Part shown: in pieces, positions 1 to 31,257 of the stretch | Layout: the number at the start of each line of letters is the position of its first letter | How positions within the stretch are numbered: the first letter of the stretch is position 1 | Source: Cyanophora paradoxa CCMP329 | Lineage: Eukaryota; Plantae; Glaucophyta | Reading direction: 5' to 3' | NCBI GenBank assembly: GCA_004431415.1 | Contig: QPMI01000236.1 | Location: 15,064 to 79,063 of the forward strand | Length of the DNA: 64,000 nucleotides | Translations under genes and position numbers: made by a program | Notes under the pieces: model-generated | The model's database searches: none | Seen by the model: the letters and a program-made list of their open reading frames with translations, nothing else | Told to the model about the DNA's origin: nothing

Positions 1-1
1 G

Positions 2-703
2 AATAACTCAATCTATGGGAAATGCATTGAATCTTGCAGAGGTAGATCTGTGGTTAAGATTGCAAACAGTGAGAAACTGTTTATGAAATATGCAGCCTCC
101 CCATTGGTGAAATCAACAAGTCCCATAAACGAAAAAGCAGTTGCCTTTGAGTTTTACACAAAGCATGTGAAGCTAGATAAGCCAGTTGCTATTGGGGCTT
201 ATGTTCTGGATGCAGCCAAACTGCATAACTACAAGTTCTTCTATGATACTGTAAGGTCCCAATGGACAAAAGCAAAGTTACTATTCCATGATACTGACTC
301 CTTTTGTCTATATATCGAATCTAAGACCCTACAAAAAGATATAGAGAATATATCCTTTAATCTGGACTTAGGAGGACCTAACAGAATGACCCCAGGTAAA
401 TACAAAAATGAAATGCCAGGTTCTGCTATATTGGAGTATGTGGGTCTCAGAGCCAAAGTTTACAGTTTCAGAACTGCTGAGATTGAGAGAAGTAAGCTAT
501 CTGGGACTTCCACTGAGGAACTCCAATTTAATGATTTTAAGCAGTGTTTATTTGCAGGTATCAGCAAGACTGTGACTGCAAAGCAGAAGAGAAGGGCAGA
601 TCACACAATAATAGATACTGTGAGTAGAAGGGTTGCCCTAAACTGCTTTGATGCAAAGAGATACATCTTACCAGATGGTATTAATTCTGTTCCTTTTAAT
701 TAA
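2..703 (+). CDS. Protein-primed family B DNA polymerase, C-terminal part (5' end outside window)
   Basis: Frame is open from base 2 and reads NNSIYGK (KxxxNSxYGK motif B), KPVAIGAYVLDAAK, LLFHDTDSF (motif C), GKYKNE, EYVGLRAKVYS and FDAKRYI. These motifs are typical of Polinton-type pPolB. Confidence 0.93.
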   Translation, partial: NNSIYGKCIESCRGRSVVKIANSEKLFMKYAASPLVKSTSPINEKAVAFEFYTKHVKLDKPVAIGAYVLDAAKLHNYKFFYDTVRSQWTKAKLLFHDTDSFCLYIESKTLQKDIENISFNLDLGGPNRMTPGKYKNEMPGSAILEYVGLRAKVYSFRTAEIERSKLSGTSTEELQFNDFKQCLFAGISKTVTAKQKRRADHTIIDTVSRRVALNCFDAKRYILPDGINSVPFN

Positions 704-822
704 GAGATGCCAGCAACTGGAAGAATAGTTAGAAGAACCACTGAGCAACTGCAAGGTAACCTACTGCCCATCACAATTCCAAAGGAGGAAAAGGGGAATC
801 TCGAATTGTAAAAAAGTCAGAG

Positions 823-2091
823 ATGAAAGAGCTTGTCCCAGTAGAGATCCCAGTTGCTATTGCAGTGAAAGAAACCAGCAAGATTGCCAAGAGATTCTAT
901 GATGTGAGAACTGGTTACAAAGGGCTTCAAGCTATGAGGGCTGAGTTACCTGATGAATCCTATAAGCAGTTGCAAGAGTTCTATAAAAAACAAGAGGTAG
1001 TTCAGATCAATGCACCAGCTATATCTAGGAAGAGAGATCCCATGGTTCCAATTAGGCAGCCCCTTGATACCTATGTGATTGATTTGCTCTTTTTCCCAGC
1101 TTATAAGAAACAAAACAATGGCTATGATACCTTTATGACTGCAATGGAATCTACACTGAGAACTGGGTATATCATACCTATAAGGGATAAATCAGCTCTC
1201 ACTACATTAGCTGCATTTAAACAGCTTGAAATGAGAGTGGCAAGACCAATAGTAAAAGTTCAATCAGATGCTGGGAGTGAATTCCAAAATCGAATATTCC
1301 AGGAGTATTTATCTAGTAAATTCATAGAACACCAAGTGAGTGGAACTGCTGACCATAGAAGCCAAGGTCGAATTGAAGCCTTTAACAAGCAGATTAAGAG
1401 ACTGATCACAAACTATTGCATAGCTAATAACACAGCTAGATTCTTTGATGTGTTAGGTGATATTGAGTATAATTACAATAATACAGTTCACTCAGCTACT
1501 AAGATGAAGCCAGGCGAAACTACAGAGGAGCATTATAGGTATATAGTGGGATTAGAAGATGAAAGATTCAAGAAATCAATAGCTTACCTTGATACCATGC
1601 AGCCTGGCATGTTTGTTAGAGTGAAAGTTGAGAAGAACCCCTTTGCTAAACAGGGTAACAATTGGTCTAGGATGGTTTACACTGTTGATAGTAGGGAAGG
1701 CTTTAAGTTTAAGCTAAGGAGTCCCACTGGAGAGATCATAGATAACAGGTTTGCATTCCATGAGCTGTTGCCTGTGAATGCAGTTGAATATCTAGAAACC
1801 CCTACAGTGGATGCCTTAGAGCAAGCCAAAGAGGAAGCTAGGGTTGATGCTGCTATAAGGAGAGAGGGCATAGAAGCTGCTAATGAAGTCCCAGATAAGC
1901 CTTTGATAGAGGCTAGAAAGGACAAGGCTGGGAAAGTTAGCAGGGAACTCAAAAAGCTCACCATAGCAGGCACACAGAAACTTTCAGAAGTGAATAGCCA
2001 GAGGTGGTATAATGACTTTCAGACTACTAAGGAGTCATATACAGCCCCTAAACCTCAAAGAACACTAAGAGAAAGGACCAAAACTAGCTAG
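823..2091 (+). CDS. Retroviral-like (rve) integrase of Polinton type
   Basis: Contains YVIDLL (D1), VQSDAGSEF (D2) and GRIEAFN (E), with 35 residues between D2 and E. YNNTVHSATKMKP and an SH3-like segment (PGMFVRV..NWS..ELLPV) follow. Confidence 0.93.
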   Translation: MKELVPVEIPVAIAVKETSKIAKRFYDVRTGYKGLQAMRAELPDESYKQLQEFYKKQEVVQINAPAISRKRDPMVPIRQPLDTYVIDLLFFPAYKKQNNGYDTFMTAMESTLRTGYIIPIRDKSALTTLAAFKQLEMRVARPIVKVQSDAGSEFQNRIFQEYLSSKFIEHQVSGTADHRSQGRIEAFNKQIKRLITNYCIANNTARFFDVLGDIEYNYNNTVHSATKMKPGETTEEHYRYIVGLEDERFKKSIAYLDTMQPGMFVRVKVEKNPFAKQGNNWSRMVYTVDSREGFKFKLRSPTGEIIDNRFAFHELLPVNAVEYLETPTVDALEQAKEEARVDAAIRREGIEAANEVPDKPLIEARKDKAGKVSRELKKLTIAGTQKLSEVNSQRWYNDFQTTKESYTAPKPQRTLRERTKTS

Positions 2092-2569
2092 TTTCATAGC
2101 CGAAAACTCGTTTTTTCCAAATATATGTATGTGTGATATACATATATGCATATGATATACACATCAACGTGTAGATCTTCTCAAGCGCTTCACAACGCTA
2201 TGCAGAACGCTGCAAGTTGACTATCTGGTGATGAGATACAAGCGTTTGAAGATGCCGATTATCGATTTTTCGAGATTTCGGAATGATGCATCATAATGAT
2301 GTAATAATGATGTATCATAAACATATAACATATATATATCGCCGTGATCGTCATGATCTCCCGAGTTCGATGGTGTGTCATATATATCATATACATTTGC
2401 ATCGTCATTATGACATCATTTCGTAAAATTACACGTCCGTCATCGTCTTTTTCCGCAGCGAACAGATAAGTGAACAGTTAAGGAGACAACTATTGTAATA
2501 GTGGACTGCAACAACAATTGAAAACAAGATATGCGGGAAAGCTATTGAAAGACAATGAAGCAAATTGCG

Positions 2570-2668
2570 AACAATTAAGTGAACAGTTAAGTGGACACCT
2601 GTTGGGAGTAGGCAGTGTCTACTCGTTTATCGTGAAACGGTGTCCACTTAACTGTTCATTTAACTGTT
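2570..2668. repeat. 30-bp inverted repeat with an internal small hairpin
   Basis: AACAATTAAGTGAACAGTTAAGTGGACACC (2570-2599) pairs with GGTGTCCACTTAACTGTTCATTTAACTGTT (2639-2668) at 28/30. The inner GAGTAGGCA/TGTCTACTC can form a stem. Confidence 0.85.
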
Positions 2669-2888
2669 GACGAAAACCCATGCATTATGACATCATATCA
2701 TTAAACCACATACAAAACACTAAAATGCATGTATCTCTTCACCAACTCATCATGTGACAAAACCAAAAACAGATTCGGAATCCTCTTAACGAGGCCTGCC
2801 TGACGATGTAAGTATCATAGGCTCAATAATTCATATGTTTATAAGCATCTCCCCTTGATTCCCCCTATTATATAATATTTATATTAAA

Positions 2889-3316
2889 GTGGACTCAAGG
2901 TTGACTCATATTAATCGTAAAAGTAGTAATAGTATATGGATTTTGTTACGAATTCAATGCAAGGGTTGACTAAGTGGGTTGAGTTGACTCAAATTTCACA
3001 GGAAATATTTGGGACCTAAAGTTTTCTAAAAAGGATTTCAAAAAATGTGTCAACTCCCCCCACTTAGTCAACCCTGACCATAAACAGTAAGGATTTGAGC
3101 TAACAAGTATCACAAAGTGAACATTTTGAGTCCACTTAGAAGATCCACTTTTGAAATCCAAGTTGATTTTGCTTGAAATTTCAAAGTTGATCTAAAAGTG
3201 AGTCCACCCTGATTGATTATGGTAACAAAGTTGACTAAGTTGACTAAGTTGAGTCATCTTAAGAAATTCAAAGAGACTAAGAGTTCAAAATGTTTATGAA
3301 AAGTGAGTCAACTTAG
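2889..3316. repeat. Cluster of GT(T/G)GACT(C/A)A motifs in both orientations, including a 17-bp perfect inverted repeat
   Basis: Motif copies near 2889, 2900, 2965, 2983, 3046, 3062, 3127, 3199, 3230, 3239 and 3304. AGGGTTGACTAAGTGGG (2962-2978) pairs with CCCACTTAGTCAACCCT (3059-3075). Confidence 0.8.
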
Positions 3317-3335
3317 ACCACTTATGATAACAAAG

Positions 3336-5025
3336 TCAGGCGAAGCCTCTTTCTCAAACCCAAAAACCGCCGACCGAAATTCCTTTTTTAACCTTTTTTT
3401 CCACTCGAGATCCCCCCTGCTAAATAATTTCCGTGTCACACTCCCTCGAAGCAGAATTATTAATTCTGCCTCGACACGGACGCGATTGATGGACATTACA
3501 CAGCTGCCCGAACCGCCACAGACCCCTCTAGATCCATTTTTAGCGTCCTGGCTCCCCTAAGACGACCGCTCCCCCGTGGGCGTCGCGCGAAAATCGAATT
3601 TCCCTCTGGATCAATTCCGGTACTTAACCCCCGACAAACACAGTCCGAGTCAGAAGGTGGGACCCGGTCCCGCCCGGTCCCGCGACGAAATCGCGCCAGG
3701 GACGCCCCAGAACGATACAGAATGACGCGCGAGGGCGAGCGCATCGCCGCAAGCTCGATTTCGGGCGCCCTCGATTCTCCAGTCCGAAGAATCGGCCGAA
3801 CATTTGATCCGGCCGGTCCCGCCCGGTCCCGCGACGCGCGCAATCGATGCGTACCGGCGCGCATAGACATAGCAGGGCCTGCGCACCCCCGAAATCCGCT
3901 TTCGGAGCCAGAGCAGCGCAGGAAGGCTCCCGACGGCAAAAAATCGATCCTGCACAGTCCCGGGCAACTTTCCGCGCGCCGACGCCGCGGCGCATGCGCG
4001 GATCGATAGCATAAGCATTTGAGATGTAGGAGAAGCCTTTTGCACGGTCTCTAAATGCGCCGGGCCACGAGGACCCAGCCGACCCCGAAAATTCGATCCT
4101 CTACAGACCTGAAGACCTGTTCTTGCGCCCTCGCATCCTCGCGCATGCGCATCGCTACAATATTCATTTCACATTTTATTGAAGCCTTCCACAAGCTTTG
4201 AAGACGCGGAAGAGCACGAGAACCCAGCCGACGGCAAAAAATCGATTCTGAACAGACCCGGACATCTTTCCGTGCGCCAACGCCGCGGCGCATGCGCGGA
4301 ACAATATGATAAGCATTTCAGATGTAGACAAAGCCTTCCGCACGCATTGCAGATGTGCCGGGCCGCGAGGACCCAGCCGACGCCGAAAATTCGATCCTGG
4401 ACGGACCTGCACAGCTTTCCGCGCGCCCTCGCATCCTCACGCGTGCGCATCCCTACACTAGTAATTTGAGATCTTTCTTAAGCTTTTCGCGAACTCTAAA
4501 GATGCGCATGAATCCAGCCGACCCCGAAATAAAAGATGAATCCAGCTGAATCGCGAACTCTAAAGATGCGCATAAAGATGCGACAGGGCGCGAGAATCCA
4601 GCCGACCCCGAAAATTCGATCCTGGCCAGGCCTGCAAAGCTTTCCGCGTGCCCTCGCCTCCGCAGCCCCGCACATCGATGCTATATGCATTCAAGATTCT
4701 GTTTAAGCGATTCGCAAGCTCTGTGCATGCGTCTGGCCTTGAGAATCTCGCCCCTCCCGGGCCTCCCTCTCAACAATATTATATAATTCATCTCCTCTCA
4801 ACTTGCTCCGGCATCCCTTTATTTCCTCAGTACATTAATATTCCTCTAGTTATATTCCTCTAGCCGGCCAGCGCTGGACAAGTACTGGCCGTCAGCCAGC
4901 CAGCTTCCGGATCCAGCCAGAAAGCTGTTCGCGATCGGCCAGGCCGCTGGCCAGTGCCCTATAGGCCTACTGTGACAGCCGCGAGGGCGTCCGCGAGGCT
5001 TCGCCGTACTTAGTGCTCCGCAGGA
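3336..5025 (+). mobile_element. Non-autonomous Helitron2/Helentron-like element, copy 1 (3' hairpin truncated)
   Basis: The 5' end TCAGGCGAAGCCTC contains an AGGC-GAA-GCCT hairpin. Its 11-bp inverse GAGGCTTCGCC lies at ~4995-5005, just before the terminal hairpin GTGCTCC-GCA-GGA[GCAC]. There are no conventional TIRs/TSD and no credible ORF. Confidence 0.65.
3930..4680 (+). repeat. ~150-bp diverged tandem repeat (two alternating monomer types) inside the Helentron-like element
   Basis: Anchor AAAA(T)TCGAT(C/T)CT recurs at ~3940, 4088, 4240, 4387 and 4612. The same array is present in copies 2 and 3. Confidence 0.8.
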
Positions 5026-5182
5026 ACCCAAAAACCGCCGACCGAAATTCCTTTTTTAACCTTTTTTTCCACTCCAGATCCCCCCTGCTAAATAATTCCC
5101 GTGTCACACTCCCTCGAGGCAGAATTATTAATTCTGCCTCGACACGGACGCGATTGATAGACATTACACGGCTGCCCGAACC
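5025..5182 (+). mobile_element. Short head-to-tail fragment of the same element (near-5' ~160 bp)
   Basis: Nearly identical to ~3357-3514. Contains the near-perfect palindrome TCGAGGCAGAATTA-T-TAATTCTGCCTCGA (5114-5142). Confidence 0.8.
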
Positions 5183-5183
5183 C

Positions 5184-6873
5184 CAAGATCTGTGCTCCTG
5201 CGGAGCACTAAGTACGGCGAAGCCTCGCGGACGCCCTCGCGGCTGTCACAGTAGGCCTAGCTATATATAGGGCACTGGGTGCCACTGGCCAGCGGGTGGC
5301 AGCGGCACGGCCGATCGCGAACAGCTGTCTGGCTGGCCAGCTGCAGCCCAACTAGTACTGGCCGGGCCCGGCCCAGTGCATGGGCCAGTCCAGCTAGCGC
5401 TGCATGGCCGGCCAGAGAGAAATATTAATGTACTGAGGAAATAAAGCGAATATATTATTAGGGAGTGGTTGGACTGGCTTTTAACTGGTGGAGCAGATTG
5501 AGAGGAGATTAATTATATAATTATATAATATTGTTCGGAGGGAGGCCGGGATCCCCGGAGGGGCAAGGTTCTCGCGGCCAGGCGCATGCACAGAGCTTGG
5601 GAATCGCTTAAACAGACCCTCGAATGCATATAGGCCGCCCGCAAAGACGTGCAGGCGTGGCGAGGATCGAATTTTTGCGTCGGCTGGGTTCTCGCGCCCT
5701 GTCGCGCCCACAGAGCTCGCGGAAAGCATTTAAAACATCTCAAATGAATATACTAGCGATTCTCGTGCGTGAGGATGCGAGGGCGCGCGGAAAGATGTGC
5801 AGGTCCGTCAAGGATCGAATTTTGAGGGTCGGCTGGGTCCTCGCGGCCCGGCACATCTGTAAAGCGTGCGGAACGCTTCATCTACATCTCAGATGCTTAT
5901 GCTATTGTTCCGCGCATGCGCCGCGGCGTGGGCGCGCGGAAAGATGTCCGGGTCCGTGCAGGATCGAATTTTTGCCGTCGACTGGGTTCTCGTGCTCTTT
6001 CGCGTCTTCGAAGCTTGTGGAAGGCTTTGATAAAATCCCAAATGAATATAGTAGCGATTCTCATGCGTGAGGATGCGACGGCGCGCGGAAAGACGTGCAG
6101 GTCCGTCCAGGATCGAATTTTCGGGTCGGCTGGGTCCTCGCGGCCCGGCGCATCTGTAAAGCGTGCGGAATGCTTCTTCTAGATCTTAAATGCTTATGCT
6201 ATTCTTCCGCGCATGCGCCGCGGCGTGGGCGCGCGGAAAGATGTCCGGGGCCGTGCAGGATCGAATTTTTGGCGTCGGGTACCTTCCTGCGCTCTTCCGG
6301 CTCCGAAAAGCGGATTTCGGGGGTGCGCAGGCGCTGCTATGTCTATGCGCGCTAGTACGCATCGATTGCGCGCGTCGCGGGACCGGCCGGAACCGGCCGG
6401 ATCAAATTTTCGGCCGACTCTTCGCACTGGAGCGTCGACGGCGCGCGAAATCGAGCTTGCGGCGATGCGCTCGCCCTCGCGCGTCATTCTGTATCGTTCT
6501 GGGGCGTCCCTGGCGCGATTTCGTCGCGGGACCGGGCGGGACCGGGTCCCACCTTCTGACTCGGACTGCGTTTGTCGGAGGTTAAGTACCGGAATTGATC
6601 CAGAGGGAAATTCGATATTCGCGGGACGCCCACGGGGGAGCGGTCGTCTTAGGGAAGCCAGGACGCTAAAAATGGATCTAGAGAGGTCTGTGGGGGTTAG
6701 GGTAGCTGAGTCATTAGCGGCAATCGCGTCCGTGTCGAGGCAGAATTAATAATTCTGCCTCGAGGGAGTGCGACACGGAAATTATTTAGCAGGGGGGATC
6801 TCGAGTGGAAAAAAAGGTTAAAAAAGGAATTTATATCGGCGGTTTTTGGGTTTGAGAAAGAGGCTTCGCCTGA
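5184..6873 (-). mobile_element. Helitron2/Helentron-like element, copy 2 (inverted, both termini present)
   Basis: Diverged reverse complement of copy 1. On the + strand it begins CAAGATCTGTGCTCCTGCGGAGCAC and ends GAGGCTTCGCCTGA. Confidence 0.7.
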
Positions 6874-8084
6874 CCCGGTCCCGCCCGGTCCCGCGACGAA
6901 ATCGCGCCAGGGACGCCCCAGAACGATACAGAATGACGCGCGAGGGCGAGCGCATCGCCGCAAACTCGATTTCGGGCGCCGTCGACGCTCCAGTGCGAAG
7001 AGTCGGCCGAAAATTTGATCCGGCCGGTTCCGGCCGGTCCCGCGACGCGCGCAATCCATGCGTACTGGCGCGCATAGACATAGCACGGCCTGCCCACCCC
7101 CGAAATCCACTTTTCGGAGGCCGAACAGTGCAGGAAGGCTCCCGGCAGCAAAAATTCGAACCTGCACGGTCCCGGGCACCTTTCCGCGCGCCCACGCCGC
7201 GGCGCATGCGCGGAACGATAGCATACGCATTTGAGATGTAGAAGAAGCCTTCCGCACGCTTTACAGATGCGCGGGGCCGCGGGGACCCAGCCCACCCCGA
7301 AAATTCGATCCTCTACAGACCTGCACATCTTTCCGCGCGCCCTCGCATCCTCGCGCATGCGCATCGCTACAATATTCATTTGAGATTTTATCAAAGCCTT
7401 CGACAAGCTTCGAACACGCCGAAGACCACGAGAACCCAGCCGACGGCAAAAATTCGATCCTGCACGGACCTGGACATCTTTCTGCGCGCCCACGCCGCGG
7501 CACATGCGCGGGACAATAGCATATGCATGTGAGATGTAGACAAAGCCTTCCGCATGCTTTACAGATGCGCCGGGCCGCGAGAACCCAGCCAACCCCGAAA
7601 GTTCGATCTTGCACGGACCTGCACAGCTTTCCGCACGCCCTCGCATGCTCACGCATGGGCATCGCTACGGTACTCAGCTCCACCCTTTAATTATTTCCCG
7701 TAGCTCTTTGAAGAGAATGGGGCTCAATCTAGATCGATCTGCTCCACCCTCTTTGAAGAGAATGGGGCTCAATCTAGATCGATCTGCTCCACCCTTTAGC
7801 GAAAGTTCGATAATTAAGAGCTCAAATGAATACTCTCATGGGGCTCAATCTAGATCGATCTGCTCCACCCTTTAATTATTTCCTCGCTCAGTACATCATG
7901 GCATTAATATTCCTCTAGCCGACCAGCGCTAGCTGGACTGGCCGTCAGCCAGCCAGCTTCTAGCCAGAAAGCTGTTCGCGATCGGCCAGGCCGCTGGCCA
8001 GTGCCCTATAGGCCTACTGTGACAGCCGCGAGGGCGTCCGCGAGGCTTCGCCGTACTTAGTGCTCCGCAGGAGCACGGATCTTG
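6872..8084 (+). mobile_element. Helitron2/Helentron-like element, copy 3 (5'-truncated, internally rearranged)
   Basis: Starts GACCCGGTCCCGCCCGG, matching 3661 of copy 1. Ends GAGGCTTCGCCGTACTTAGTGCTCCGCAGGAGCACGGATCTTG followed by TT. Confidence 0.7.
7677..7883 (+). repeat. 45-bp tandem duplication plus partial copies
   Basis: CTCTTTGAAGAGAATGGGGCTCAATCTAGATCGATCTGCTCCACC occurs at 7704-7748 and 7749-7793, with a partial copy at ~7838-7883. Confidence 0.85.
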
Positions 8085-8347
8085 TTAAATATTTATTTGA
8101 TTTAATCGGAAAAGAACATGATTTAATCGAATTTATTGATATAATTCCGATTAGATTCATTTAGGATTCAATTAAGATCAATCGAAGTTATTGATATAAT
8201 TCCGATTAACTACAATTAAGATACAATATCGATTAATCGAGTTTATCGATATAACATCGATTAAATTAATTGAAAATGCATTTACAAATATGAAAATTCA
8301 TGTGAAAATTCAAATAAATTAATCGATTTTATTGATATAACATCGAA

Positions 8348-8446
8348 TCACACATATGAATATTCATATTTTAATCCTGAGGCGGAACGCCGAGGGATTA
8401 AAATATGAATATTCATATGTGTGACAATGTCTCCGACATGGAGACA
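8348..8446. repeat. Perfect 30-bp inverted repeat capped by GGCG-GAA-CGCC, followed by a second 7-bp hairpin
   Basis: TCACACATATGAATATTCATATTTTAATCC (8348-8377) pairs with GGATTAAAATATGAATATTCATATGTGTGA (8395-8424). TGTCTCC-GACAT-GGAGACA lies at 8428-8446. Confidence 0.9.
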
Positions 8447-9456: not shown

Positions 9457-9795
9457 GACTCGCGATCGCGATCGCCGAGTCGGGACTCGGGACTCGACTC
9501 GGCGAGCTCGGGAGTCGGGAGTCGGGAGTCGGGACTCGGGAGTCGGGAGTCCCGGAGTCCGACGGTCGGGACTCGGGAGTCGCCGCCGGGCCGGAGTCGC
9601 CGAGTCGGACTCGGGACTCGGGAGTCGGGACTCGACGAGTCGGGACTCGGGAGTCGGGACTCCCGAGTCCCGAGTCCGGCCCGGCGGGAGCCGATCCGCG
9701 GCGGGACTAGTACTACTGGTAGACTAACAGTGGTAGTATTCCCGGAACCCGGGAGTCGACGTCAAAAGTCGGGACTCGGGAGTCGGGACTCGGGA
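9457..9795. repeat. Heptamer minisatellite of GACTCGG/GAGTCGG units
   Basis: Dozens of GGGACTC/GGGAGTC units, with an inverted stretch (TCCCGAGTCCCGAGTCC) at ~9661. Confidence 0.9.
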
Positions 9796-10248
9796 TATAT
9801 ATACGCAAGTATGTACTTGATAATGAATCTTGAAATTATCATAAATTGAACTTGAAATCCCACTGCAAGGCATGCACTAGCTAGCAATGAATTCGAATGA
9901 TTTTAGCGGATTGACCAAAGAATTACTTATTTGTAATTCGTTAATTAACAAAAGACAAGGTTCCGGTACCGGTAGCTCACCGGAGGGTCCGTAGCTGTAC
10001 TACGTACTACGTACGGACCGTCTACGGTACGCACTGCGGCATGATCGCCCGCGCGCGCAGGAAACTTTGAAAACCGAGCCTGAAACCGATCATCGGATGG
10101 CCGGGGCCATGGGCCGGCGATGGCAGACTTGCCAAGTTGGCGGTTTACTTACTAAAGTTAATTATATGTGGTCACCGGGTTAAATTATATTAATATCAAG
10201 TATCAGTTATTATAATTAACTGCTGTATCTAGCTAGCGCTATTGCTAG

Positions 10249-13996: not shown

Positions 13997-16900
13997 ATGG
14001 CCACCCTCCGGACGACGAAGCGGACGGAGCGGACCGGCAGCATGGGCGAGCGGACCATCCTGAAGTTCCCTAGATATGTCAGCGGGGACGATGGCGTGGA
14101 GCCCAAGGTGCGCTGGAGCGGCCCGCTCGGCTATGTGGCAGCCGCGCTAGCTTCCGCACGCCTGCATGCGTGGAGCGGTGCCTCGTGCCTCGTAGCTCAT
14201 GCCCGTGCCGCATTGTCCGAGCAGAAGACCCCGAGCATGCTTCGGAAAGAGTTCGAGGCGTGCAAGAAGGGGACGCTGCCTTTCCCGGTGAAGAGCAAGC
14301 CGCCGAAGATCGTGGAGTTCCTCAACATGTCGGACTACACGCACCAGACGAACACGATCGTCCCCATCGACGAGCCCATCTTCCAGCCCTTCCCGCCGCA
14401 GGTCGTCTTCCAGGGCTACGAGCCTTTCAAGACCTACGAGGCGGTGCTGCACCTCCGCAACAACGACAACGTGCGCGCGCTCGCTCGCAGCTAAGCCCCG
14501 CCCCGCGCGCCTTCCGCCCCCTGAGGCCTGCCCCGCCCGCTCGCCCCCGCAGGTGGCGCGGCGCGTGAAGGTCCTCCCGATCGAGTCGCCGTACTTCAGC
14601 GTCACGCCGGGCAAGGAGGCGCTGAAGGGCGCCAAGGTGGCGTCGGGTATGGAGCTGACGTACAACATCAAGTTCCAGCCGGAGGAGCGCAAGGACTACG
14701 TCATCGACCTCGTGGTGGCCACGGAGCGCGAGAAGTTCCACGTGCCCGTCCGCGCCATCGGCTCCCGCGGTGCGCCACCTCCGCGCCGCGGCGCCGCTCG
14801 CGCGCTCTCTGGCTGACACCGCCGCCGCCCGCGCCCGCGCGCCCGCAGCATTCCTGGACTTCCCGGACGAGATCGTGTTCGACCAGGCGGTGGTCAAGAT
14901 GACGACGACGCGGACCGTGCTGATGCGGAACATCGGCGACCGGGACGCGCAGTTCAGCTTCGAGACGAGCGGGCCCTTCAAGGTGATGCCCATGGAGGGG
15001 TACGTGGACGTGGGCGAGGCGGCCCAGGTGACGCTCTCCTTCACGCCGGAGAGCGCGATCGACTACACGGGCGAGGTCCGCCTCGCCTTCGGGGAGGGCC
15101 AGGTCGTCTACAGCGCCCTGCGCGGCTCGGGCGGCGAGGTCAACGTGCGCCTCGACAAGACCGAGCTCACGATGGAGCCGACGTACACCGGCCTCTCCTC
15201 GCGGCGCACCATCAAGATCTACAACAGCTCGGACATCCCCATCCACTACGAGTGGCGCGCGCTCGCCACGGCGGCGGCCGAGCAGCGGGAGCGCGCGGCG
15301 CGGCAGATGGAGCTGACGAGGGCCGAGAACGAAGAGACGCGGGCGCTGCAGGCGACGGCGACGGCGGCGCTGAGCGCGGCGGCGGCGCGCACGGGCGGGC
15401 TGGGCGGGGACGACGAGGGGAGCGAGGGGGAGGAGGGGGAGGGCGGCGGGGCGCGGCGGGGGATGCTGGAGGTGACGCGGCGGTACGAGCGGGCGCGGGG
15501 CGAGGTGGACCACGACCGCATGCTCTTCTACCACGAGGCCTTCTCCATCGAGCCCGTCGAGGGGGACCTCTGGGGCCACTCCGAGGTCCAGGTGCGGCGG
15601 CCGGCGCTGCGCGGGAGTTCGTCCTCCTCGGCCGGCCCCACGCTGAGCGAGCCTTGCAGGTGACGATCACGTTCTCGCCGCTGGCGGCGGCGCGCTTCAA
15701 CACGGCGGCGTACCTCGAGGTCACGGGCCGGCAGACGCGCCTCCCCCTCGACCTCAAGGGCGAGGGCGTCGGGCCCCGCGCCCGCTTCTCCTACGACGTC
15801 GTCCGCCCCGCCCCCACCCGCCCCGCCCCGCGCGCCTTTCCTCGGCGCTGACGGGCCGGCCGGCCCCCCAGCTGGACCTCGGGGACGTCTTCCTGAACAG
15901 CGTGCACCAGTACGAGGTCTCCATCGAGAACCAGGGCAACATCCAGGTCCGCTTTTCCCCTTGCCCCGCCCCGCCCCGCTTCCCTCTCCTCCGCTCCGCT
16001 CCGCTCCGGTTCGAGGCCCGTTTGCCTCCTCCCTCCCTCCAGGTGCGGTACCAGCTGCGGCCGCCGGCGTCGGTCTTCGGGCAGAAGTTCCACTTCACGC
16101 CGAGCGCCGGCGTCCTGGGCGTCGGCGAGTCCCAGACCCTCCAGGTGCTCCCTATGCTACGCCCCGCTACGCTCAGCTATGCTTCGCGCCTTCTGAACGG
16201 CCCCGCCCCGCCCCGGCTCAGGTGACGTTCGCGTCGAACGTGCTGGGGGACTTCGCGGAGCGCTTCTCCTTCCACGTCGCCTTCGCGAACGAGGACCTGC
16301 ACGTCGACTTCAAGGGGCGCGTCGTCGGGCCCACCTTTAACTTCGACGCCGAGGAGCTCGACTTCGGCACCGTCAGGTCCGCCCGCTGGCTTGCTTGCTT
16401 GCGGCGCCGCCTTTCTGACGTCTTTGTTGCTCGCAGCTACGCCTTTTTGACGACGAAGACGCTCTCGCTGTACAACACGTCGGAGATCCCGATGAAGTTC
16501 TCGCTGCGGGTGCCGGGGGACGGCCGCGCGGCGGGGGCGCCCAACGGCCGCGAGTTCGAGATCGTGCCGAGCTCGGGGACGGTGCTGCCCCACGGGAAGC
16601 AGAAAGTGCAGGTGGACTTTGTGCCCGTGCAGGCCCGGCCCTACGACCGGTCCCTGGTGGTGGACGTGGAGGGCGTGGGGCAGGACCTGCTCGCGCTGCC
16701 CATGCGCGCCCGCTGCCTCGTCCCCAAGATCTCCATCTCGGCCGACGAGGTCCAGTACGGCGACTGCTTCCTCCGCTACCCCTACCCCAAGGTCGTCGAG
16801 CTCGTCAACGAGTCCAAGCTCCCCGCCAAGTACGAGGTGCGCGCCGGCGGGCGGGCGGGCGGGCGGGCGGGCGGGCGGGCGGGCCGGCCAGCTAGCTACC

Positions 16901-19900
16901 TAGCCCCCTAAGCTAGCCCGGCCCGGCTAGGCCCGATCGGGCCGCGTGCGTGCGCCCCGACTGACGCGCCGGCCGCCGCCGCCGCCGCCCCCGCAGGTGC
17001 TGGCGCAGGACGAGGGCTCGAAGTGCATCGCGACGCACGAGGCGGACAAGCCCAAGGGCGTCATCCCCGCGCTCTCCTCGTGCATCGTGGCCCTCACGCT
17101 CACCCCGGAGCGCCTGGGGCCCATCTCCCTCCCCGTCTACTTCAAGGTGGCCGGCTCGGAGGGCCCGCCCCTCTCCACCACCCTCTCCTGCAACTGCGTC
17201 GGCCCGACCGTCACCCTCGACACCGCCAGCCTCGACTGGGGCTCCGTCGCCGTCCTCCAGCCCTGGGAGCGCACCCTCACGCTCCACAACCCCTCGCTCA
17301 TCGCGGCCGAGTACAAGGCCTTCTTCAAGCGCGCCTCGGTCTTCTCGCTGGAGAAGCACCAGGGGCGCATCCCGCCGGGCGGCAGCGAGGCGCTGCGCAT
17401 CACGGCGAACCTGGACGAGACGCAGAAGTTCGACGAGGAGCTCCGCGTCATGATCACCGACGCCGACGACAAGGTCGTGCGGCTGCACGCCAAGGGCACG
17501 GGGACGACCGTCTGGTGCGCCCACCCGATGGACACGATCGACTTCGGCAACCTCTTCACCAACCGCGGGCGCGTCTCCTGTCTCATCTATCTTATCTTAG
17601 AAGCTGACGGCTGGGGCAGGACGGTGAAGGAGATCGTGCTGGAGAACCGCGGGCGGAGGACGCAGACGCTGGTCTGGTCCTACAAGGACCCCAAGAAGAA
17701 CCGGAAGCGGCCGGCGGACGCGCCGCCCGAGGAGCCCGAGGTCTTCCAGTGGCAGCCGCAGCGCGTCAACGTCGAGCCCAAGACCGCCGTGGTGAGCGGG
17801 GCCGGGCCGGGCCGGGGCTTAGCGGGCGGGGGGCTCACGCCGGGGCGCGCGCAGATCTTCGAGGTGCGGGCGGCGTGCGCGCGGAACGGGACGGCTTCGG
17901 AGCAGTTCGTGTGCACGACGACGGTCGGCAAGACGCAGAAAGTGGTCTTCGAGAGCACGCTGGTCGCCAACTTCGTCGACCCGCTCCTCGAGTGGTCGGC
18001 CCCGGGGCTCACCTTCACGTACGACTACGAGCCGGGCGTGCCCATCCGGCCCCAGACGATGCCCGTCACGCTCAAGAACGTCTCGCTGCTGCCGCTCGAG
18101 TTCCACCTGCGGACGCAGGTGCCCTTCTACGTCGAGGGCGGCGAGCACTCGCTGCAGCCGGGCGAGACGTGCACCGTCGCCGTGCAGTTCGACCCGGGCT
18201 TCCGTAACGACAAGCAGAGCGCGCGCATCACGAACAAGCTGAACGTCATCTACCGGGAGCACCCGCAGCGGGACAGCCTGCCGCTCGTCGGGGAGATCAA
18301 CTTCCCGAACCTCACGTTCGAGTCCAACAAGATCGACTTCGGGTGCGTCCTCAACGAGACGGCCAAGCGCGTCGTTGTCGAGTTCTCCAACAAGAGCAAG
18401 ATCGAGGTGCTTATCATTATTGTTTTACCGTCTAGCTTTCTCTTCTTGTTCTGATTGCTTTGTGTTTGCAGGCCTCGTACCAGTGGTTCTTCATCGAGGA
18501 CGAGGAGCCGGCGAAGCACGACGACACGCTCTCGGTCAACGCGGCGCCGCTGGGGCCGGCCGGCTCCGCCACCAACCCGCCCAGCGGCGCCGCCTCGGCG
18601 CGCACCAACGTCCCCGAGGGGACGCCGGCGCCGGTGCCGGCGGCGCCGTCCAACACGCGCGCGGCGCGGGCGGCGGCCGCCGCCGCCGCAGCGGCGGCGG
18701 CGCTCCCGCCCGTGCCGGTGAACCAAGTCTTCGACATCCGGCCCATCCGGAGCGTGTTGAAGCCGGGCGAGTCGGAGCGGGTCGAGTTCGTCTTCTACGG
18801 CCACACGAACCGCAAGTTCAAGGGCTCCGCCGTCTGCGACGTCTCCGGCGGGCCCGAGTACGAGTTCCAGGTCCGCGAACGAACGCGCAAGAAAATGAGA
18901 TTCATTCCCTTGGATCTAATCTAATCCAATCCAACCCACCCGAACAGGTCTCGGCGGAGGCGAGCCAGGTGCAGTACAAGCTGGACACGCGGTCCATCGC
19001 GTTCGAGCCGCAGCAGTACGACAAGCAGGAGGAGCGCGAGATCGTGCTCTCCAACACGGGCCGCGTCGGCTTCGCGTACACGATCTCGACGGCGGCCGTG
19101 CAGCGCCCGGGGGCCCTCGAGATCTCCCCGATGTCGGGGCGCGTCAACGCCCACGAGAAGGCCAAGCTGGTCGTCAAGTTCATGCCCCGCGTCCCCGACC
19201 GCGCCGTCGAGAAGTTCCACATCCAGGTCCGCCTTTCGTTCGTTTCCACATATCTAATCCAGTGCCTTTCGTCTTAGCTCCCGCCTCCCACCTCAGGTCG
19301 CGCACTTCGACCCGGAGGAGATCACGGTGACGGGCGAGGGCCTCTTCCCATGCCTCCTCCTCACGCTCCCGCGGCTGGAGGACGAGCGCCACAAGGCGGC
19401 CGTCGAGGCGGTCCTCGCGAACCCGCCCCGCCTGCCCCCGCCCGGCACGCCCTACTACGGCCAGCCCCCGCCCCCCTCGCCCGGGCCCGGCGGCGCCCCG
19501 GCCCCGGCCGGCGCCGCCGCCGCGGAGGCGGCGCTGGAGAGCATTCCGGAGGGCAACGCCTTCGAGGCGACGACCGGCTCGCTGCCGCTGTCGGCGGGGC
19601 CGGCCTCCATGGGCGCCTCGGGCAAGGGGCCCCCGGGCGGGGGCAGCACGGGCCGCCGCGCCGGCGCCTCGACGCCGGGGAGCAACCGGAGCGGGCCGCG
19701 CTTCTCGGCGGCGCCGATCAAGCTGCCGAACCTGGGGCAGGGGCCCCTGGACGCCCTCGGGCTCGCCGAGGTCGACCGCCGGGTACGCGCGAAGTCTTAG
19801 CCCGGGGCCTCATCGGGAAGCGTTCCTCTGAGCGTTCCTCCGCGCAGATCCTGCTGCAGAACGTGACCGAGTTCCTGGCGGAGGAGCAGCGGCAGCCGCC

Positions 19901-22900
19901 GCGCTCGGCGGGGGCGCAGGGGGCGGCGGGGGGACAGGGGAGCGACAGCGCGCGGGCCGGCCGCGGCACGAAGATGCCGCGCGAGATGCGCCCCCTCGCC
20001 ACGTACGTCTGCGACTTCGGGAACGTCGTCAAGGGCACCACCCGCAAGAAGTCCTTCAAGGTGCCCCAGTACCCCCCTCCTCCACCCCCCTTGTACTCAC
20101 TCTACCCCGTACCCCCCCCCAAAAAAGGCCTCGACGGTGAGCTGGCTGGCGTCGACCTTCGAGTTCGTGAAGGCGGCGCTGCTGGGGACGGGCCTGACGG
20201 TGACGCCGGATCGCGTGCCCCGCATCGGGGGCTTCCCCGAGTGCGAGGTCATGGACCTCGCGGTCATCTTCACGGCCACGAAGAAGGAGCTCGCCCTGGG
20301 GCCCTTCCAGGTCCATCTTTCCCCTACCCCTCCCTGCTCCGCCCCGCCCTTCTCAGCTAACCTTGCCTTCCTCCCCTCGCCAGGTGGACGTGCCGCTGGT
20401 GATGAAGGACGGCCCGGCGCACGTGCTCTCGGTGCGGGCGAACGTGACGGTGCCCGACGTCAAGCTCTCCGCCGATGTCCTCGACTTCGGCCGCATCGCC
20501 CTCGGCCAGTGCCGCGTCATGTACCTCCAGGCCCGCCTTCTTCTTCTTCTCGCTTCGTTTGAGCCTCTTCTGACTGACGGCTCTCCGCCTCGCCTCGCCC
20601 CGGCAGGTCCTGAACTACCGGGAGGTGCCCTGCGAGTGGGGCTTCAAGCGGAGCCAGGAGGCGGCCAAGGAGCTCGCGCCCTTCACCTTTAACCCGGAGG
20701 GCGGCATCCTCCAGCCCAACGAGCGCGTCAACGTCGAGGTCCGACCGCGGACTGCTGAAGGGATCAGCGATAGAGGCTTAGAAGCGTCGCGCAGGTGACG
20801 TACACGCCGCTGGAGGAGCGCAAGTCGGCTTTCAAGCTGCCCGTGCGGGTGAACCAGAACCCGCGCTCGCTGAGCCTCGCCGTGCGCGCCTCGGCGGCCT
20901 CGCTCGGCGTCAAGTTCGAGCCGTCCAGCGTCGACCTGGGCGCCATCATGCCCCGCACCAAGCCGGCCGAGCGCATTGTCAACCTCGTCAACACCTCCGA
21001 GGTCCCCGTCGAGGTCCGCTCAGATCTGATCCGATCTGATCTGATCTGATCTGATGCAACCCTCGGATCTGATCTGACCCGGGCCGGGCCCCGGGGTACA
21101 GGTGTACAGCTTGGACCTGGACATGCTCTACCTGGAGGAGGAGGACGCCCTGCGGTACGCGAAGGGGTACCAGAGGAACGTTCTCCTGCTGGAGCCGCGG
21201 CCCCCGGGGGCGCCCCTGCCCGAGGCGCTGGTGGCGGAGGCGAAGGCGCGCAAGGCGCGGGAGCTGAGCCCGCCGCTCGGGCCGGACGGGCAGCCGATTC
21301 CGGAGGAGGTCGAGGTCGAGCCGGACCGGGCCGTCCACGTCGTCGTGGCGGGGCCCAGCGGCGTCGGCAAGTCGACGCTCGCCGCGCAGCTCGCCGCCCG
21401 CTACCGCGTCCCCGTCCTCACCCTCGACGGACTCCTCCAGGCCGCCATCGACGCCGGTACCCCCGCCGGCCTCGAGGCCTTCGCGGCCCTGTACCCCGAC
21501 CTCGCCGCCCCTGCCGCCCCCGCCGAGGGCGCCTCCGACCCCTCCTCCGCCCCCACCCCCGGCCCGGGCTCCGCCCCGCCCCCGGCCGCGAGCCCCGTCC
21601 CCGAGCAGCACACGCCGGCGCCGCCGCCGCCGCCGCCGGCCGCCAGCCCCGCCCCGCCCAGCGCCAGCTCGCCGATCCCCGGCGCCTCCGCGACGCCCTC
21701 GGCCGACCGCTCCGCGTCGCCCGAGGCCGGGGCGCCGGGGACCATCCCCGTGGAGCCTCCGGCGCGGCCGGCGGTCACGGTGGGCGTGACGGAGGCCAAG
21801 GGCGCGCTGGAGGCGGCGACGGTGACCAAGGTCGTGCAGGAGCGCATGGCGCAGCCCGACTGCGCGCTCGGCTTCGTCTTCGACGGGCTGGCCTCGAAGG
21901 TCCTGGCCTCCCCCGAGGCGGCCGCGGCGGCCGTCGTCGACGCCGTCCACACGCGCGTCTGGTTCTTCGCCGCCATGCAGCTCCCGGACCCGCTGGCGCT
22001 CGCCGCCCGCCGCCGCCCGCCGCCCCGCCCCCGCCGAGCGGCCCGAGGGCGAGGAGGCCGCCGCCGCCCCCCCGCCGCCCCCGCCCGAGCCGGCGCCGGA
22101 GGCCCCGCCGCCCAAGGAGGCCCCGGCGAAGGGCAAGGACGGCAAGGACAAGAAGAAGGGCAAGGCGGAGGCTGAGGAGATCCCGGAGGAGCCGCAGGAC
22201 GTGAAGGAGGCGCGTGCGGACCTGGAGGCGTGGGCCGAGGCGCTGCGGGTCGCCCAGTGGGTCGTCCGCTCCCGGGAGGCGGCGAAGAAGGGCGTCGAGA
22301 TGCCAAAGCTCGAGGAGCCCAAGGGCAAGGACGGCAAGGGCGGCAAGGACAAGCCGGGGGAGAAGGACGCGAAGAAGAAGAAGGACGCCGGCCCCCCGAT
22401 CGAGGAGCTGGTCCCCATCGACGCGATCCTGCGGCTCGTGCCGGCGGAGAAGCCGGCGGACGCGCTCTTCCAGGAGCTGTGCGAGGGGCTCCCGCCGCCG
22501 GTGCCGCCGCCGGTGAACCCCTTCGAGGCGATGGAGATCCCGCCCCCGCGCACCATGCAGATCGTGCACAAGCCCAACGTCCGCGGCAAGCGCGCTCCCA
22601 TCGCCCACTTCTCCGTCCTCACCCCCGTCGCCGAGCCCCCACCGCCCCCGCCGCCCTCCGCGGGCGCCGGCGGCCCGGACGCCCCTCCGCTGCCGGCGGT
22701 GACGCCGGCCGCGGGCGACGCGCCGGCCGCGTCGCCCGCGCCGGCGGCTTCGGACAGCAAACCGGGGACGGCGGCCGGGCAGTCGCGGCCGCAGTCCAAG
22801 GGCTCCGAGTCCTCGCGCCCGGCGACCAGCAAGGACGCCAAGGCGAAGGAGCAGGAGGCGGCAGCAGCGGCGGCGGCGGCAGCGGCAGCAGCGGCCGCCG

Positions 22901-25900
22901 CCGCCGGGCCGCCGGAGACGAAGTACGAGCGGCCGGCGCGGTGGGTTCTGCAGCCGAAGCAGTCGCTGCCGCTAAAGCTTCAGTTCGCGGCCGAGGAGCC
23001 CGAGGTCGTGGGCGAGACGCTGGGCTTCGAGGTCCTCAACCAGGGGCCGGGCCACCCCCGCGAGATGCACCTCAAGTGCCGCGGCGTCTGCGCGTACCCC
23101 CAGATCTCGGGCGACCCGCGCAACGTCTTCCTCCGCAAGACGAAGGGCGGCGACGAGAGCAAGATCATCGTCAAGCAGTTCGTCTCGAGCCGGGACCGCT
23201 ACGAGTTTGGCCCGCTGCTCGCCGGCAAGAACAAGGAGGGCTACCAGGCGGGCAAGCACCCGGAGAACCGGGAGAAGTTCCGCATCACGAACAACGGGCT
23301 CTTCGACTGCAAGGTCTCGTTCTTCCTGGAGAAGCACCCGACGGGGCCGTTCTACCTGGACCCCCCCACCATGGAGCTCAAGGTGGACGAGACGAAGGAG
23401 CTGACCGTGTGGGCCTTCCCGGAGGCTGTCGGGCCCTTCGAGGAGACCCTCGTCTGCTGCGTCAAGGACAACCCGCAGCCGGTCGCCTTCAACCTCCACT
23501 GCCTGGGCGCCAAGCCCGAGGTCAAGCTCGACAAGTCCGAGCTGCAGTTCGACCGCCTGCTCATCCCGCGGGAGGACACGATGACCTTCACGGTGACGAA
23601 CGTCGCGCCGCTCGCGTGCAACTGGCGCCTCGTCGGCGCCGACACGGCCGGCGCCGAGTGGCGCATCGCCCCGACGAGCGGCACGCTGGAGCCGAAGGGC
23701 GCCGTCACCGTGACCGTCCAGTTCCACGCCAAGGACCCGGCCGTGCTCAAGAAGGACCTGACGGTCGAGATCACGGACGCCGGCGGGCTCCTCGGCGTGG
23801 CGCAGACGCTCCCCGTCGTGCTGCAGGCCGAGGCCTTCAGCGTGAACCTCGAGACGGACACGACGGCGCTCGACTTCGGCGTGATGCGCGTCCTGCAGGA
23901 GGACAAGCGCCAGATCAAGCTGCTGAACAAGGGCAAGTACGACATCGGCTTCAAGATCCTCGTCAAGAAGAAGGCGCTGCGCGACATGTTCACCATCACG
24001 CCCTCCGAGGGCGTCCTCAAGCCTACGGAGGCGCCCCCGCCCCCGCCGGGCTCCAAGGCGCCGCCGGCCAAGGCCCCCGCCGTGGCGCCCACGGTCGTCG
24101 AGTTCGCGCTCAAGGCCCACGGGGAGGTCACCCTCAAGGACAGCCTCGACATCAAGATCCAGGCGAGCCGCCCCGTCCATCTCTCCATCTATGTCCAGAT
24201 GGCTTCCTTCGCCTCGGCTCTCTTCCTGACGCGCGTCCGTCCCGCCCCGCGCGCAGGTGATCGAGGCGTCGTCGAGCGAGGTGCTGCCGTCGGTGGTCCC
24301 GATCAAGATCAACGCGCGCGTGCTCTACGCCAAGTACGCCATCACGCCGCTCCGCGGCCTCAGCTTCGGGCCCCTCCTCGTCGGCACCCGCAAGACCCGC
24401 ACCTTCGACATCGTCAACCAGGTCCGGCCCCCTTCTTCTTATCTATCTGGTTCCTAGACTGACTTTGTGCGCCGCGCAGGGCGAGTTCGACTTCAACTAC
24501 ACGATCGCGAAGATGCCGGCGGAGCTGCGGCCGCCCTCCTCGCAGCAGCCGGCCGCGCCAGCCTCGGCCAGCGGCGCCCCGCGGCCCGCCGCGCCCGCCG
24601 CCGCAGCCGCAGCCGCGCCGGCAAGCCGGCGGCGCCGGCGGCGGCGGCCGGGAAGAAGGGCGCGCCGGCGGCGGACGCGCTGACGGTCGGGAGCTTCGTG
24701 GTGACGCCGAGCCTGGGGAACGTGCCGGCGGGGGCGACTCAGACGATCTCGGTGGAGTTCCTGGCGGACGCGGGGGCCGCCTCGGCGGAGGTCCTCGCCA
24801 TCGACATCGCGGACCGGGAGCCGACGGAGCTGCGCGAGGGCGTGCCCTACGAGCTGATGGGGGAGACCTGCGTCCCCGGCATCAACACCTGGGACCTCGA
24901 GTCCATCTTCGAGGAGCAGCAGGTGCGCGCGAGGCCGCGCCGCGTTTCTGTCTCTCTGCGGGAAGCTGAGAGATGGCCGTCCGCCGCGCAGGTGGTGAAG
25001 CGCCTGGCGGACGTGCCGTTCACGGTCTCGGGCGCCGGCTCGGCCGGCAAGCACGTCTACGCCGAGGAGGAGCGCGTCTTCTCGTTCGGGGCGATCGTGG
25101 CGGGGCAGAGCCGCCAGGAGCGCTTTAAGCTCGTCAACCCGATGAAGATCCCGTGCGACGTCAACGTGACGATCAAGCCGCGCGCGGCGGCCAAGGGCGT
25201 CACGGCCGGCGCCGAGGCGGCGTTCGACGTGGAGCCGAAGAAGCTCCACATCCCGACGCACGAGCACCGCTACGTGACCGTCACCTTCGCCCCCGCCGAG
25301 CTCAAGTCGTACGTCGCCGTCTTCGAGGCCTCGGTGGAGCAGGGGACGGACCCGAAGACCAAGGCCCTCACGTTCGAGGTCCGCGGCGACGGCACGATCC
25401 CGAGCGTCCTCGTCGAGCAGCCGCACGCGCGGGCGCCCACGGGCCAGCTCCTCCTCCAGTTCGCCCGCCTGCTGCTCGGCAAGGCGCAGACGGCGCCCGT
25501 CGTGCTCCGCAACGACGGGATCCTCCCCGCGACGGTCCGCGTCTCGATGCAGGCGTCGAAGTGCTTCAGCTGCGCGGGGACGGGCAGCTTCGTGCTGGAG
25601 AGCAAGAAGGCGCACACGCTCGACGTGCGCTTCTCGCCCATGGAGGCCGGCAAGTTCTCCCACGAGCTCCGCGTCTCCGTCGCCGACAACAAGTTCGAGG
25701 ACAACGTCATCCTCCTCCAGGTCCGTTCGCTGGCCGGGCTCGCTTGCTGCTGGGCTGGTCGCTGTCGCCTGCTTCTTCTTCTTCCTCTGAGGCTTCGCTC
25801 CGCAGGGCGAGGGGTACCAGGACGACGTGACCTTCGACGACCTGCCGGAGGAGTCGGCGGACACGCTCAAGTTCGAGGACACGACGGTGGGCAACCCGCG

Positions 25901-30786: not shown

Positions 30787-31257
30787 GCCGCCGCCCGCCC
30801 GCCCGCCCCCGCGGCCCCCTCCCCCCTCCCGCTGTTCTTTTCCGCTCCCACCTCCGTCCCCCGCTCTGCGGCCCCCGGTTTTTCTTGGCAGGATTTATCT
30901 AGTTTTGGACGCGCGCCAGCGACTGTTAGGGAACCAGATAGGTCAAGCTGTGTTCGAGTATAGATACAATGTCGAACAAGCCTCCAGCAGCTGCAGGAAG
31001 CCACTTGGGGCCAGTCTGCATGCACACTAGGATCTGCAGGCCTCCGGGATCCGCCCCATGGCCAAGCCGGAGGGCCGCGTGCTCGCATCATGCATATGCC
31101 CGAATGCTCGGCCGCGGCGGCTCGAGCTAGCTGCCAGGCTGGGCGGCCTGGGCCCAGCAATCTCACTACAGTGAAGGGGGAGCTCGAGCAAGAAGTGATT
31201 TACGGATACATTAGCAGAGATTATTATGTATGACCTGTAGCTGCAAAAGGGAGCGCC

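Follow-up and report, generated by a model that had tools for sequence, protein, structure and literature searches.

Near-total loss of CpG with a single spared context, CGAA, in the genes of a likely Polinton-type element of Cyanophora paradoxa

We have analysed a stretch of 64,000 nucleotides from the glaucophyte Cyanophora paradoxa CCMP329 (contig QPMI01000236.1, positions 15,064 to 79,063; hereafter the window), which opens with the end of a gene for a protein-primed DNA polymerase B (PolB) and a gene for an rve-type integrase, both of a likely Polinton-type element. Within positions 1-2091, which hold these genes, the dinucleotide CG is almost absent and each CG that is left is followed directly by AA on the coding strand. 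An earlier note on this DNA had listed by eye six such sites, all CGAA and none TTCG, and this list was borne out letter by letter: CG is found in 1-2091 at exactly 130, 316, 802, 1291, 1369 and 1515, the next CG is at 2101, all seven have AA directly 3′, and TTCG does not occur in 1-2091. The rule is genuine and has strong statistical backing over 2.1 kb of the one element, and it applies across the family; it amounts to a form of the CpG avoidance known from viruses. A literature search, in which subscription journals were thinly covered, gave no earlier description of a Polinton-like element that is depleted of CpG but exempts CGAA, and the word "CpG" is absent from the examined text of two papers on such elements (PMC12220804, PMC10120064).

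The CGAA exemption as a nucleotide rule

The region 1-2091 has a GC content of 0.40, from which 82.4 CG are expected against the 6 observed (observed-to-expected ratio, O/E, 0.07); the O/E of GpC is 1.21. Under a synonymous-codon null, in which the protein is kept and codons are drawn by base composition (5000 draws), 95.5 ± 8.0 CG are expected (lowest draw 64), and when these are divided by context the expectation is 13.4 for CGAA, 5.6 for TTCG and 77.1 for all others (lowest 49), whereas the observed numbers are 6, 0 and 0. The probability that six random survivors share any single upstream or downstream dinucleotide is 1.2e-5. The codon usage of the element, which the earlier note had named as a possible source of the depletion, was rejected as its cause, because shuffling the element's own codons yields 33.3 ± 4.1 CG at codon junctions (lowest 20 in 3000 shuffles) compared with 3 observed. 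At these junctions C precedes GAA in 3 of 12 cases but never precedes the other G-initial codons (0/82; P 0.0016), and the Arg codon CGA is used in 3 of 16 cases before A versus 0 of 31 elsewhere (P 0.035). Since the exemption is seen both at codon junctions and in Arg codons, it is a rule of nucleotides rather than of codons. Three other tetranucleotides, viz. GTGC (5.3 expected), GTAC (4.4 expected) and GGCC, are also missing from 1-2091, with no significance left after correction for the approximately 200 words tested.

CGAA is tolerated in this region and not enriched, its 6 occurrences being fewer than the null predicts, and this bears on an alternative raised in the earlier note, viz. 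that CGAA serves the element as a functional motif. On this explanation CGAA would be a binding or modification site kept amid the loss of other CG, or an enzyme encoded by the element would protect it. The occurrence of all survivors on one strand, the presence of TCGAA also in the 55-bp repeats at 8086-8430 and the finding that the first CG past the stop codon is again CGAA are in its favour. However, the sites are irregularly spaced as well as too few, and they turn over: the related integrase P0001 has no Arg at the place matching site 1291, and sites have been gained elsewhere in other copies. A favoured motif was not borne out, and we consider this explanation very improbable.

The absence of TTCG raises the question of strand, from which the earlier note drew a hint of a cause at the RNA level. 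If CGAA and TTCG were spared equally, the 6:0 split would have a P of 0.086 (by composition) or 0.15 (codon-aware), which is not significant, and with the copies described below included the split of 9:0 has a borderline P of 0.025-0.058. In addition, Phe before G is encoded by TTT seven times and by TTC never, versus 14:13 elsewhere (P 0.029). Both genes lie on one strand, so that the strand of the transcript and the strand of the element are indistinguishable here. An oriented exemption (CGAA but not TTCG) is slightly favoured by these counts but is unproven, and it would not by itself demand an RNA-level cause.

The element, its copies and its relatives

The PolB match P0156 bears the Pfam domain DNA_pol_B_2; the PolB open reading frame of the window has no Pfam match of its own and is truncated by the window edge. 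The integrase begins at 707, the N-terminus of P0001 matching 707-790, and is interrupted near 790-792 by a one-base frameshift in the window copy, P0001 and the contigs of other copies being without this break; other copies have insertions or deletions at 788 and 792. The statement of the earlier note that both reading frames are intact is therefore incorrect for this copy. The Pfam rve match of the integrase (E 2e-4) falls under the curated cut-off, which the matches of P0002 and L032 exceed, and in 40 sequences D87 and D149 of its DDE triad (D87, D149, E185) are invariant and E185 nearly so. It is matched by 5955 cluster representatives, the best being P0001 (78-79% identity) followed by P0011 (57%), and the remaining matches among the best 150 are at 25-37%.

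The Polinton-like identity proposed earlier is upheld: a protein-primed PolB, an rve integrase with the DDE triad and a repeated, integrated state together make a Polinton-type element likely. Polintons/Mavericks and adintovirus-like elements likewise carry protein-primed PolB and a DDE integrase in tandem, the distant relative L032 has the two genes in the same order together with a Pox_A32 (A32) ATPase, and genes for packaging ATPase, double jelly-roll capsid and protease are present in the distant relatives L030, L032 and L008. The window covers 2.1 kb of element genes; the left end of the element and its capsid, ATPase and protease genes lie beyond it, and no second copy of 2092-3334 that would mark a terminal inverted repeat is found in the window. 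The element adjoins an intron-containing HYDIN-like gene, i.e., it is integrated in a eukaryotic genome. Many endogenous elements of protists are described as having a GC content below that of the host (PMC10120064), as has this one, and adintovirus-like PolB and integrase have been reported in Cyanophora paradoxa (PMC8502044).

Between 814 and 1718 contigs with many variants fall on positions 1-3400 (about 3.4 kb) in three DNA-type runs of an organism A (contig depths in these runs are not copy numbers), which indicates that the element is a repeated family. Runs that are presumably of RNA contributed small shares and were not taken as a sign of expression. Of 166 rows of variants over this region 40 were examined, 21 of them in the coding part, with neighbouring letters taken as unchanged. 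A single one of the 21 creates a CG, at 1410, and this is CGAA (Thr ACG|AA, third codon position); none of the 15 rows in 1595-2160, where the set is complete, creates any. Loose ends of contigs, where diverged copies part from the window sequence, gave further sites: behind 1655 all four of four runs spell Arg-Ile with CGAA, and behind 2042 one contig of run X2, whose translation resembles the C-terminal end of P0001 and P0011, has one CGAA and one CGAT. The loose ends at 382, 1091, 1603, 1960 and 2019 (organism A) and a 10-letter end at 1493 contain no CG. In organism A, among the loose ends listed, three of four new coding-strand CG sites are thus CGAA (P 0.01 at 0.14 each), or three of five when an organism B is counted (P 0.02). 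The rule of the earlier note holds in family copies insofar as CGAA recurs at new positions, with CGAT and CCG as exceptions. A GC-rich loose end of 255 letters behind 1686 in run X1 was excluded from these counts, its translation being unlike integrase; the 30 letters given for this end include three CG, of which one is TTCG, and the end reads as a junction with other DNA.

The CGAA rule is not shared with the relatives compared. Among 55 relative loci (seven contigs are represented twice; 23-35% protein identity) CpG O/E ranges from 0.16 to 1.73 and none spares CGAA; the largest contrast between O/E of CGAA plus TTCG and O/E of other contexts is 0.89:0.69 (L024), compared with 0.35:0.00 in the window. 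Two relatives, L030 and L055, are CpG-poor throughout (O/E 0.16 and 0.17), with 2.1-kb stretches down to 0.04-0.05, but their surviving CG lie in 14 and 15, respectively, of the 16 downstream contexts and CGAA is kept no better than the rest. Hence, the depth of depletion alone is not unique to the window element, whereas the single spared context is unique among the 55 loci. Like the window element, L030 is depleted in coding DNA only (O/E 0.13, versus 1.22 in non-coding DNA). The relatives compared as DNA are not close ones (25-37% identity). No close DNA relative was confirmed among viral contigs (0 of 22, 3, 21 and 9 pattern matches for the queries integrase, PolB, P0011 and P0001), a search of a phage collection gave no match, 2 of 118 pattern matches among metagenome contigs were confirmed at 26-27% identity, and 1 of 59 among genome contigs was a weak 62-residue match (L003) that is probably no relative though it is tabulated.

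Several other biases were noted in these loci. L030 has a cluster of CG in a non-coding gap (6216-6343). With both strands counted, CGGA occurs 0 times in L030 versus 51 expected and CGAT 2 times in L055 versus 104 expected. Nine relatives (L009, L013 and L015-L021) have the opposite bias, an excess of CpG (O/E 1.5-1.7).

Limits of the depletion and the surrounding DNA

The coordinates of the features of the window are summarized in Table 1. The best change point of the depletion is at 2101 (range 2051-2101), in agreement with the abrupt return of CpG after 2100 described earlier; the CpG-normal DNA that follows, however, is likely not a host gene but the element's own terminal non-coding region (2092-2843). 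This assignment is made because repeat-like contigs cover the tail through 2160 with no loose end among those listed. Among the contigs listed, none bridges 2091 with 31 letters on each side. The first CG of the tail (2101) is CGAA and the second (2109) is in another context. Among the loose ends listed, none marks the inner edge of a terminal inverted repeat at 2092-2160, and there is no notable hairpin at 2085-2135 (z -0.63).

Table 1. Features of the 64,000-nucleotide window
Feature	Position	Strand	Characteristics
Protein-primed PolB, C-terminal end (233 amino acids)	2..703	+	37% identity over 252 columns, E 1e-38, to P0156
rve-type integrase	707..2091	+	frameshifted near 790-792; long open reading frame 823-2091; 4 CG, all CGAA
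CGAA	130..133	+	spans codon junction Asn|Glu
CGAA	316..319	+	spans codon junction Ile|Glu
CGAA	802..805	+	Arg codon CGA then Ile, integrase frame
CGAA	1291..1294	+	Arg codon CGA then Ile; no Arg at matching place in P0001
CGAA	1369..1372	+	Arg codon CGA then Ile
CGAA	1515..1518	+	spans codon junction Gly|Glu
Non-coding tail	2092..2843	.	GC 0.37, CpG O/E 1.26, 32 CG in 13 contexts
AT-rich repeated segment	2844..3336	.	short direct and inverted repeats; CpG O/E 0.15; 2 CG (CGAA, CGTA)
4.75-kb insertion	3337..8085	.	149-bp satellite arrays, long inverted repeats; CpG O/E 1.26
Continuation of 2844-3336	8086..8430	.	55-bp repeats, hairpin with 37-bp arms, GC 0.24, CpG O/E 2.76
HYDIN-like gene	about 14600-30800	+	many exons, short introns; exon matches of 31-47% to many eukaryotes
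FAD-linked oxidoreductase-like exons	about 32650-34000	+	
Two similar F-box-like genes	41640-43103 and 45215-46288	+	F-box-like atlas match

The AT-rich segment 2844-3336 either belongs to the terminal region or is a repeat of its own. In other copies it runs on into the sequence found at 8086, and the insertion at 3337-8085 splits a repeat whose halves are 2844-3336 and 8086 onward. This insertion, whose satellite arrays run in both orientations and whose inverted arms of 568 bp lie at 3335-3902 and 6307-6874, is an internal control: repeat DNA without CpG loss. The 55-bp repeats beyond it are AT-rich with many ATCGAT and ATCGAA, and their hairpin is at 8348-8424. Two further hairpins are located at 2570-2668 and 2962-3075 (arms of 30 and 35 bp), where other copies either lack some 280 bases or carry some 326 bases in repeat, and at 9463-9806 GAGTCGG/GACTCGG units of 7/14 bp form an array that has inverted symmetry.

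The description of the host genes in the window as CpG-rich also stands: in 11000-64000 CpG O/E is 1.15 at a GC content of 0.675, and CGAA O/E is 1.03. The HYDIN-like gene indicates a flagellated host, and the exons at about 32650-34000 are presumably of a bacterial-type FAD-linked oxidoreductase. The genome of Cyanophora paradoxa is reported to have a GC content of 67.6% and many short introns (PMC6704402).

Avoidance, decay and the possible agent

The loss of CG from integrated DNA may be due to passive decay, in which methylated CG in long-resident copies deaminates to TG or CA; the process may run faster in single-stranded intermediates of replication, with the terminal repeats shielded by pairing, and poorly methylated CGAA would last longer. 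Such decay would be expected to leave more T before G and more A after C at fourfold sites, and these were compared with the predictions of avoidance and of decay (equilibrium is assumed and the counts are small). Before G the ratio T:A is 43:35, where avoidance predicts 62:43 (P 0.65) and decay 107:43 (P 0.018); in NCN codons A:(T+C) is 28:70, where avoidance predicts 15:37 (P 1.0) and decay 40:37 (P 0.002). When a bootstrap also takes in the sampling error of the reference, decay has P 0.01 for the top strand and 0.0025 for the bottom strand, and a variant of the first test that counts A+G is weaker (P 0.085). The test can detect decay, because an excess of TpG and CpA was found in the relatives L055 and L037 (also in L032; L030 is ambiguous and L028 rejects decay), and its absence here favours selection. 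The earlier preference for avoidance over symmetric methyl-CpG decay is supported. Decay would need no strong selection, the depletion has a sharp edge near the likely terminal region, and TG (O/E 1.24) and CA (1.14) are somewhat raised; but AG (1.36) and CT (1.39) are raised above them, the neighbouring repeats and host DNA are undepleted, and the inner repeat edge that would set off protected termini is not seen at 2092-2160. Decay is hence an unlikely explanation.

The best reading, to which we assign a probability of about 0.45, is that the element has escaped silencing by host CG methylation and that CGAA is a blind spot of this system. Directly observed were the loss of CG and its confinement, at this end of the element, to the coding part, the one spared context and its reappearance in copies, and the lack of a decay signature. 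The host would methylate CG and silence viral genes, as has been published for Cyanophora paradoxa; selection would remove each new CG arising in the element's genes; and with fewer CG the methylation system could not shut down the portion of the integrated element that is transcribed. CGAA would be a context that is poorly methylated, or poorly read, by the methyltransferase or its reader, and the tail may keep its CG since it is untranscribed or holds no promoter. If harm came from the methyl group of one strand only, the exemption would be oriented. The CpG poverty of the non-coding segment 2844-3336 suits a pressure at the DNA level, and the undepleted state of the neighbouring repeat DNA (3337-8085) is counted in favour of this reading. 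The host itself is CG-rich, so it would be attacked by any sensor or nuclease that acted constitutively on all CG, whereas methylation could be aimed at foreign DNA by other cues.

Published work on protists is consistent with this proposal. Cyanophora paradoxa is reported to have DNMT1 and DNMT3, 32% methylated CG and methylated repeats, and its methylated genes, among which viral genes are enriched, are mostly silent (PMC12344493); the text and supplement legends of that paper contain no analysis of the flanks of methylated sites. In Amoebidium adintoviruses are silenced by 5-methylcytosine in a context-dependent methylome (CGC/GCG) (PMC11244446), and the activity of mouse DNMT1 differs almost 100-fold between NNCGNN flanks (PMC7381644). 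Two papers (PMC11244446, PMC12344493) describe protist hosts that use CG methylation against integrated viruses, viz. against adintoviruses and giant-virus insertions in Amoebidium and against viral genes in Cyanophora and Acanthamoeba. Those elements are described as methylated, with neither a CpG purge nor a CGAA exemption among the reported features. Some Polinton-like viruses (PLVs) encode Tet-like demethylases (10.64898/2026.06.19.733378), and in PLVs and a latent giant virus such enzymes are read as counter-silencing (10.64898/2026.06.19.733378, 10.64898/2026.10.09.758095).

Several points weigh against escape from methylation. A symmetric methylation mark predicts TTCG survivors, of which none is seen where 5.6 would be expected without depletion. 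The tail still has 32 CG in the 750 bp that follow the gene. A near-absolute ban on CG needs strong selection at each site, and only 2.1 kb of the element is readable. Among the copies, the CGAT behind 2042 lies in the reading frame of a diverged copy, although within about 35 bases of its stop codon and inside the change-point range, and a CCG is present in a depth-2.1 contig of run X18 (organism B) at the homologous place behind 96. Lastly, we found no report in the literature of CGAA as an unmethylated context.

The main alternative, though a less probable one, is selection on the transcript, by an RNA-binding protein or endoribonuclease that reads CpG and spares CG followed by AA, the agent belonging either to the host or to a helper giant virus that shuts off CG-rich host mRNA. 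The stop of the depletion at the stop codon, the bias to CGAA on the coding strand (9, with TTCG 0, copies included), the missing decay signature and the restriction of depletion to coding DNA in L030 would all follow from it. The strand bias is borderline, though, the non-coding segment 2844-3336 is also CpG-poor, CGAT occurs inside the reading frame of a diverged copy, and a constitutive sensor would strike the host's own mRNA given the CpG-rich genes of the window. Vertebrate and plant hosts of CpG-suppressed viruses have CpG-poor mRNA, whereas the host of this element is CpG-rich, and we know of no exemption of a single context for ZAP. What would be needed is a CpG-rich protist or a helper giant virus with a non-ZAP weapon, RNA-level or strand-specific, that follows the rule "CG not before AA", and we think this conceivable rather than probable. 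There is precedent in CpG-dependent restriction of a plant RNA virus without ZAP (PMC6892864), and in CpG suppression of vertebrate and plant viruses (ZAP/KHNYN; PMC6892864) CG is lost within codons and at junctions without a decay signature, as here.

The all-or-none pattern with its sharp exception would also fit the cutting of CG outside CGAA by a DNA nuclease, restriction-like or dependent on methylation, that belongs to the host or to a helper giant virus. The methyltransferases often carried by PLVs have been interpreted as protection from restriction by giant viruses (10.64898/2026.06.19.733378, PMC12220804), and the absence of GTGC, GTAC and GGCC would suit such an enzyme but fails correction for multiple words. 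The varied CG contexts of the tail argue against such an enzyme, because a cut there would part the genes from the end of the element, and we regard it as improbable. Of the CpG-reading defence sparing CGAA that the earlier note envisaged, avoidance over decay and the recurrence of the rule in copies are upheld, and its nuclease form is weakened.

Loss of CpG from viruses is familiar; here it is near-total, lacks a decay signature, occurs in a CpG-rich host and leaves one tetranucleotide. From this pattern the specificity of a putative antiviral factor of a protist can be predicted at the level of sequence. If this factor is a DNA methyltransferase with a blind spot, avoidance of its sites would be a third route of evasion for Polinton-like viruses, in addition to the methyltransferases and Tet-like enzymes that they encode; if instead the rule follows the transcript, CpG sensing on RNA would extend far beyond the vertebrates.

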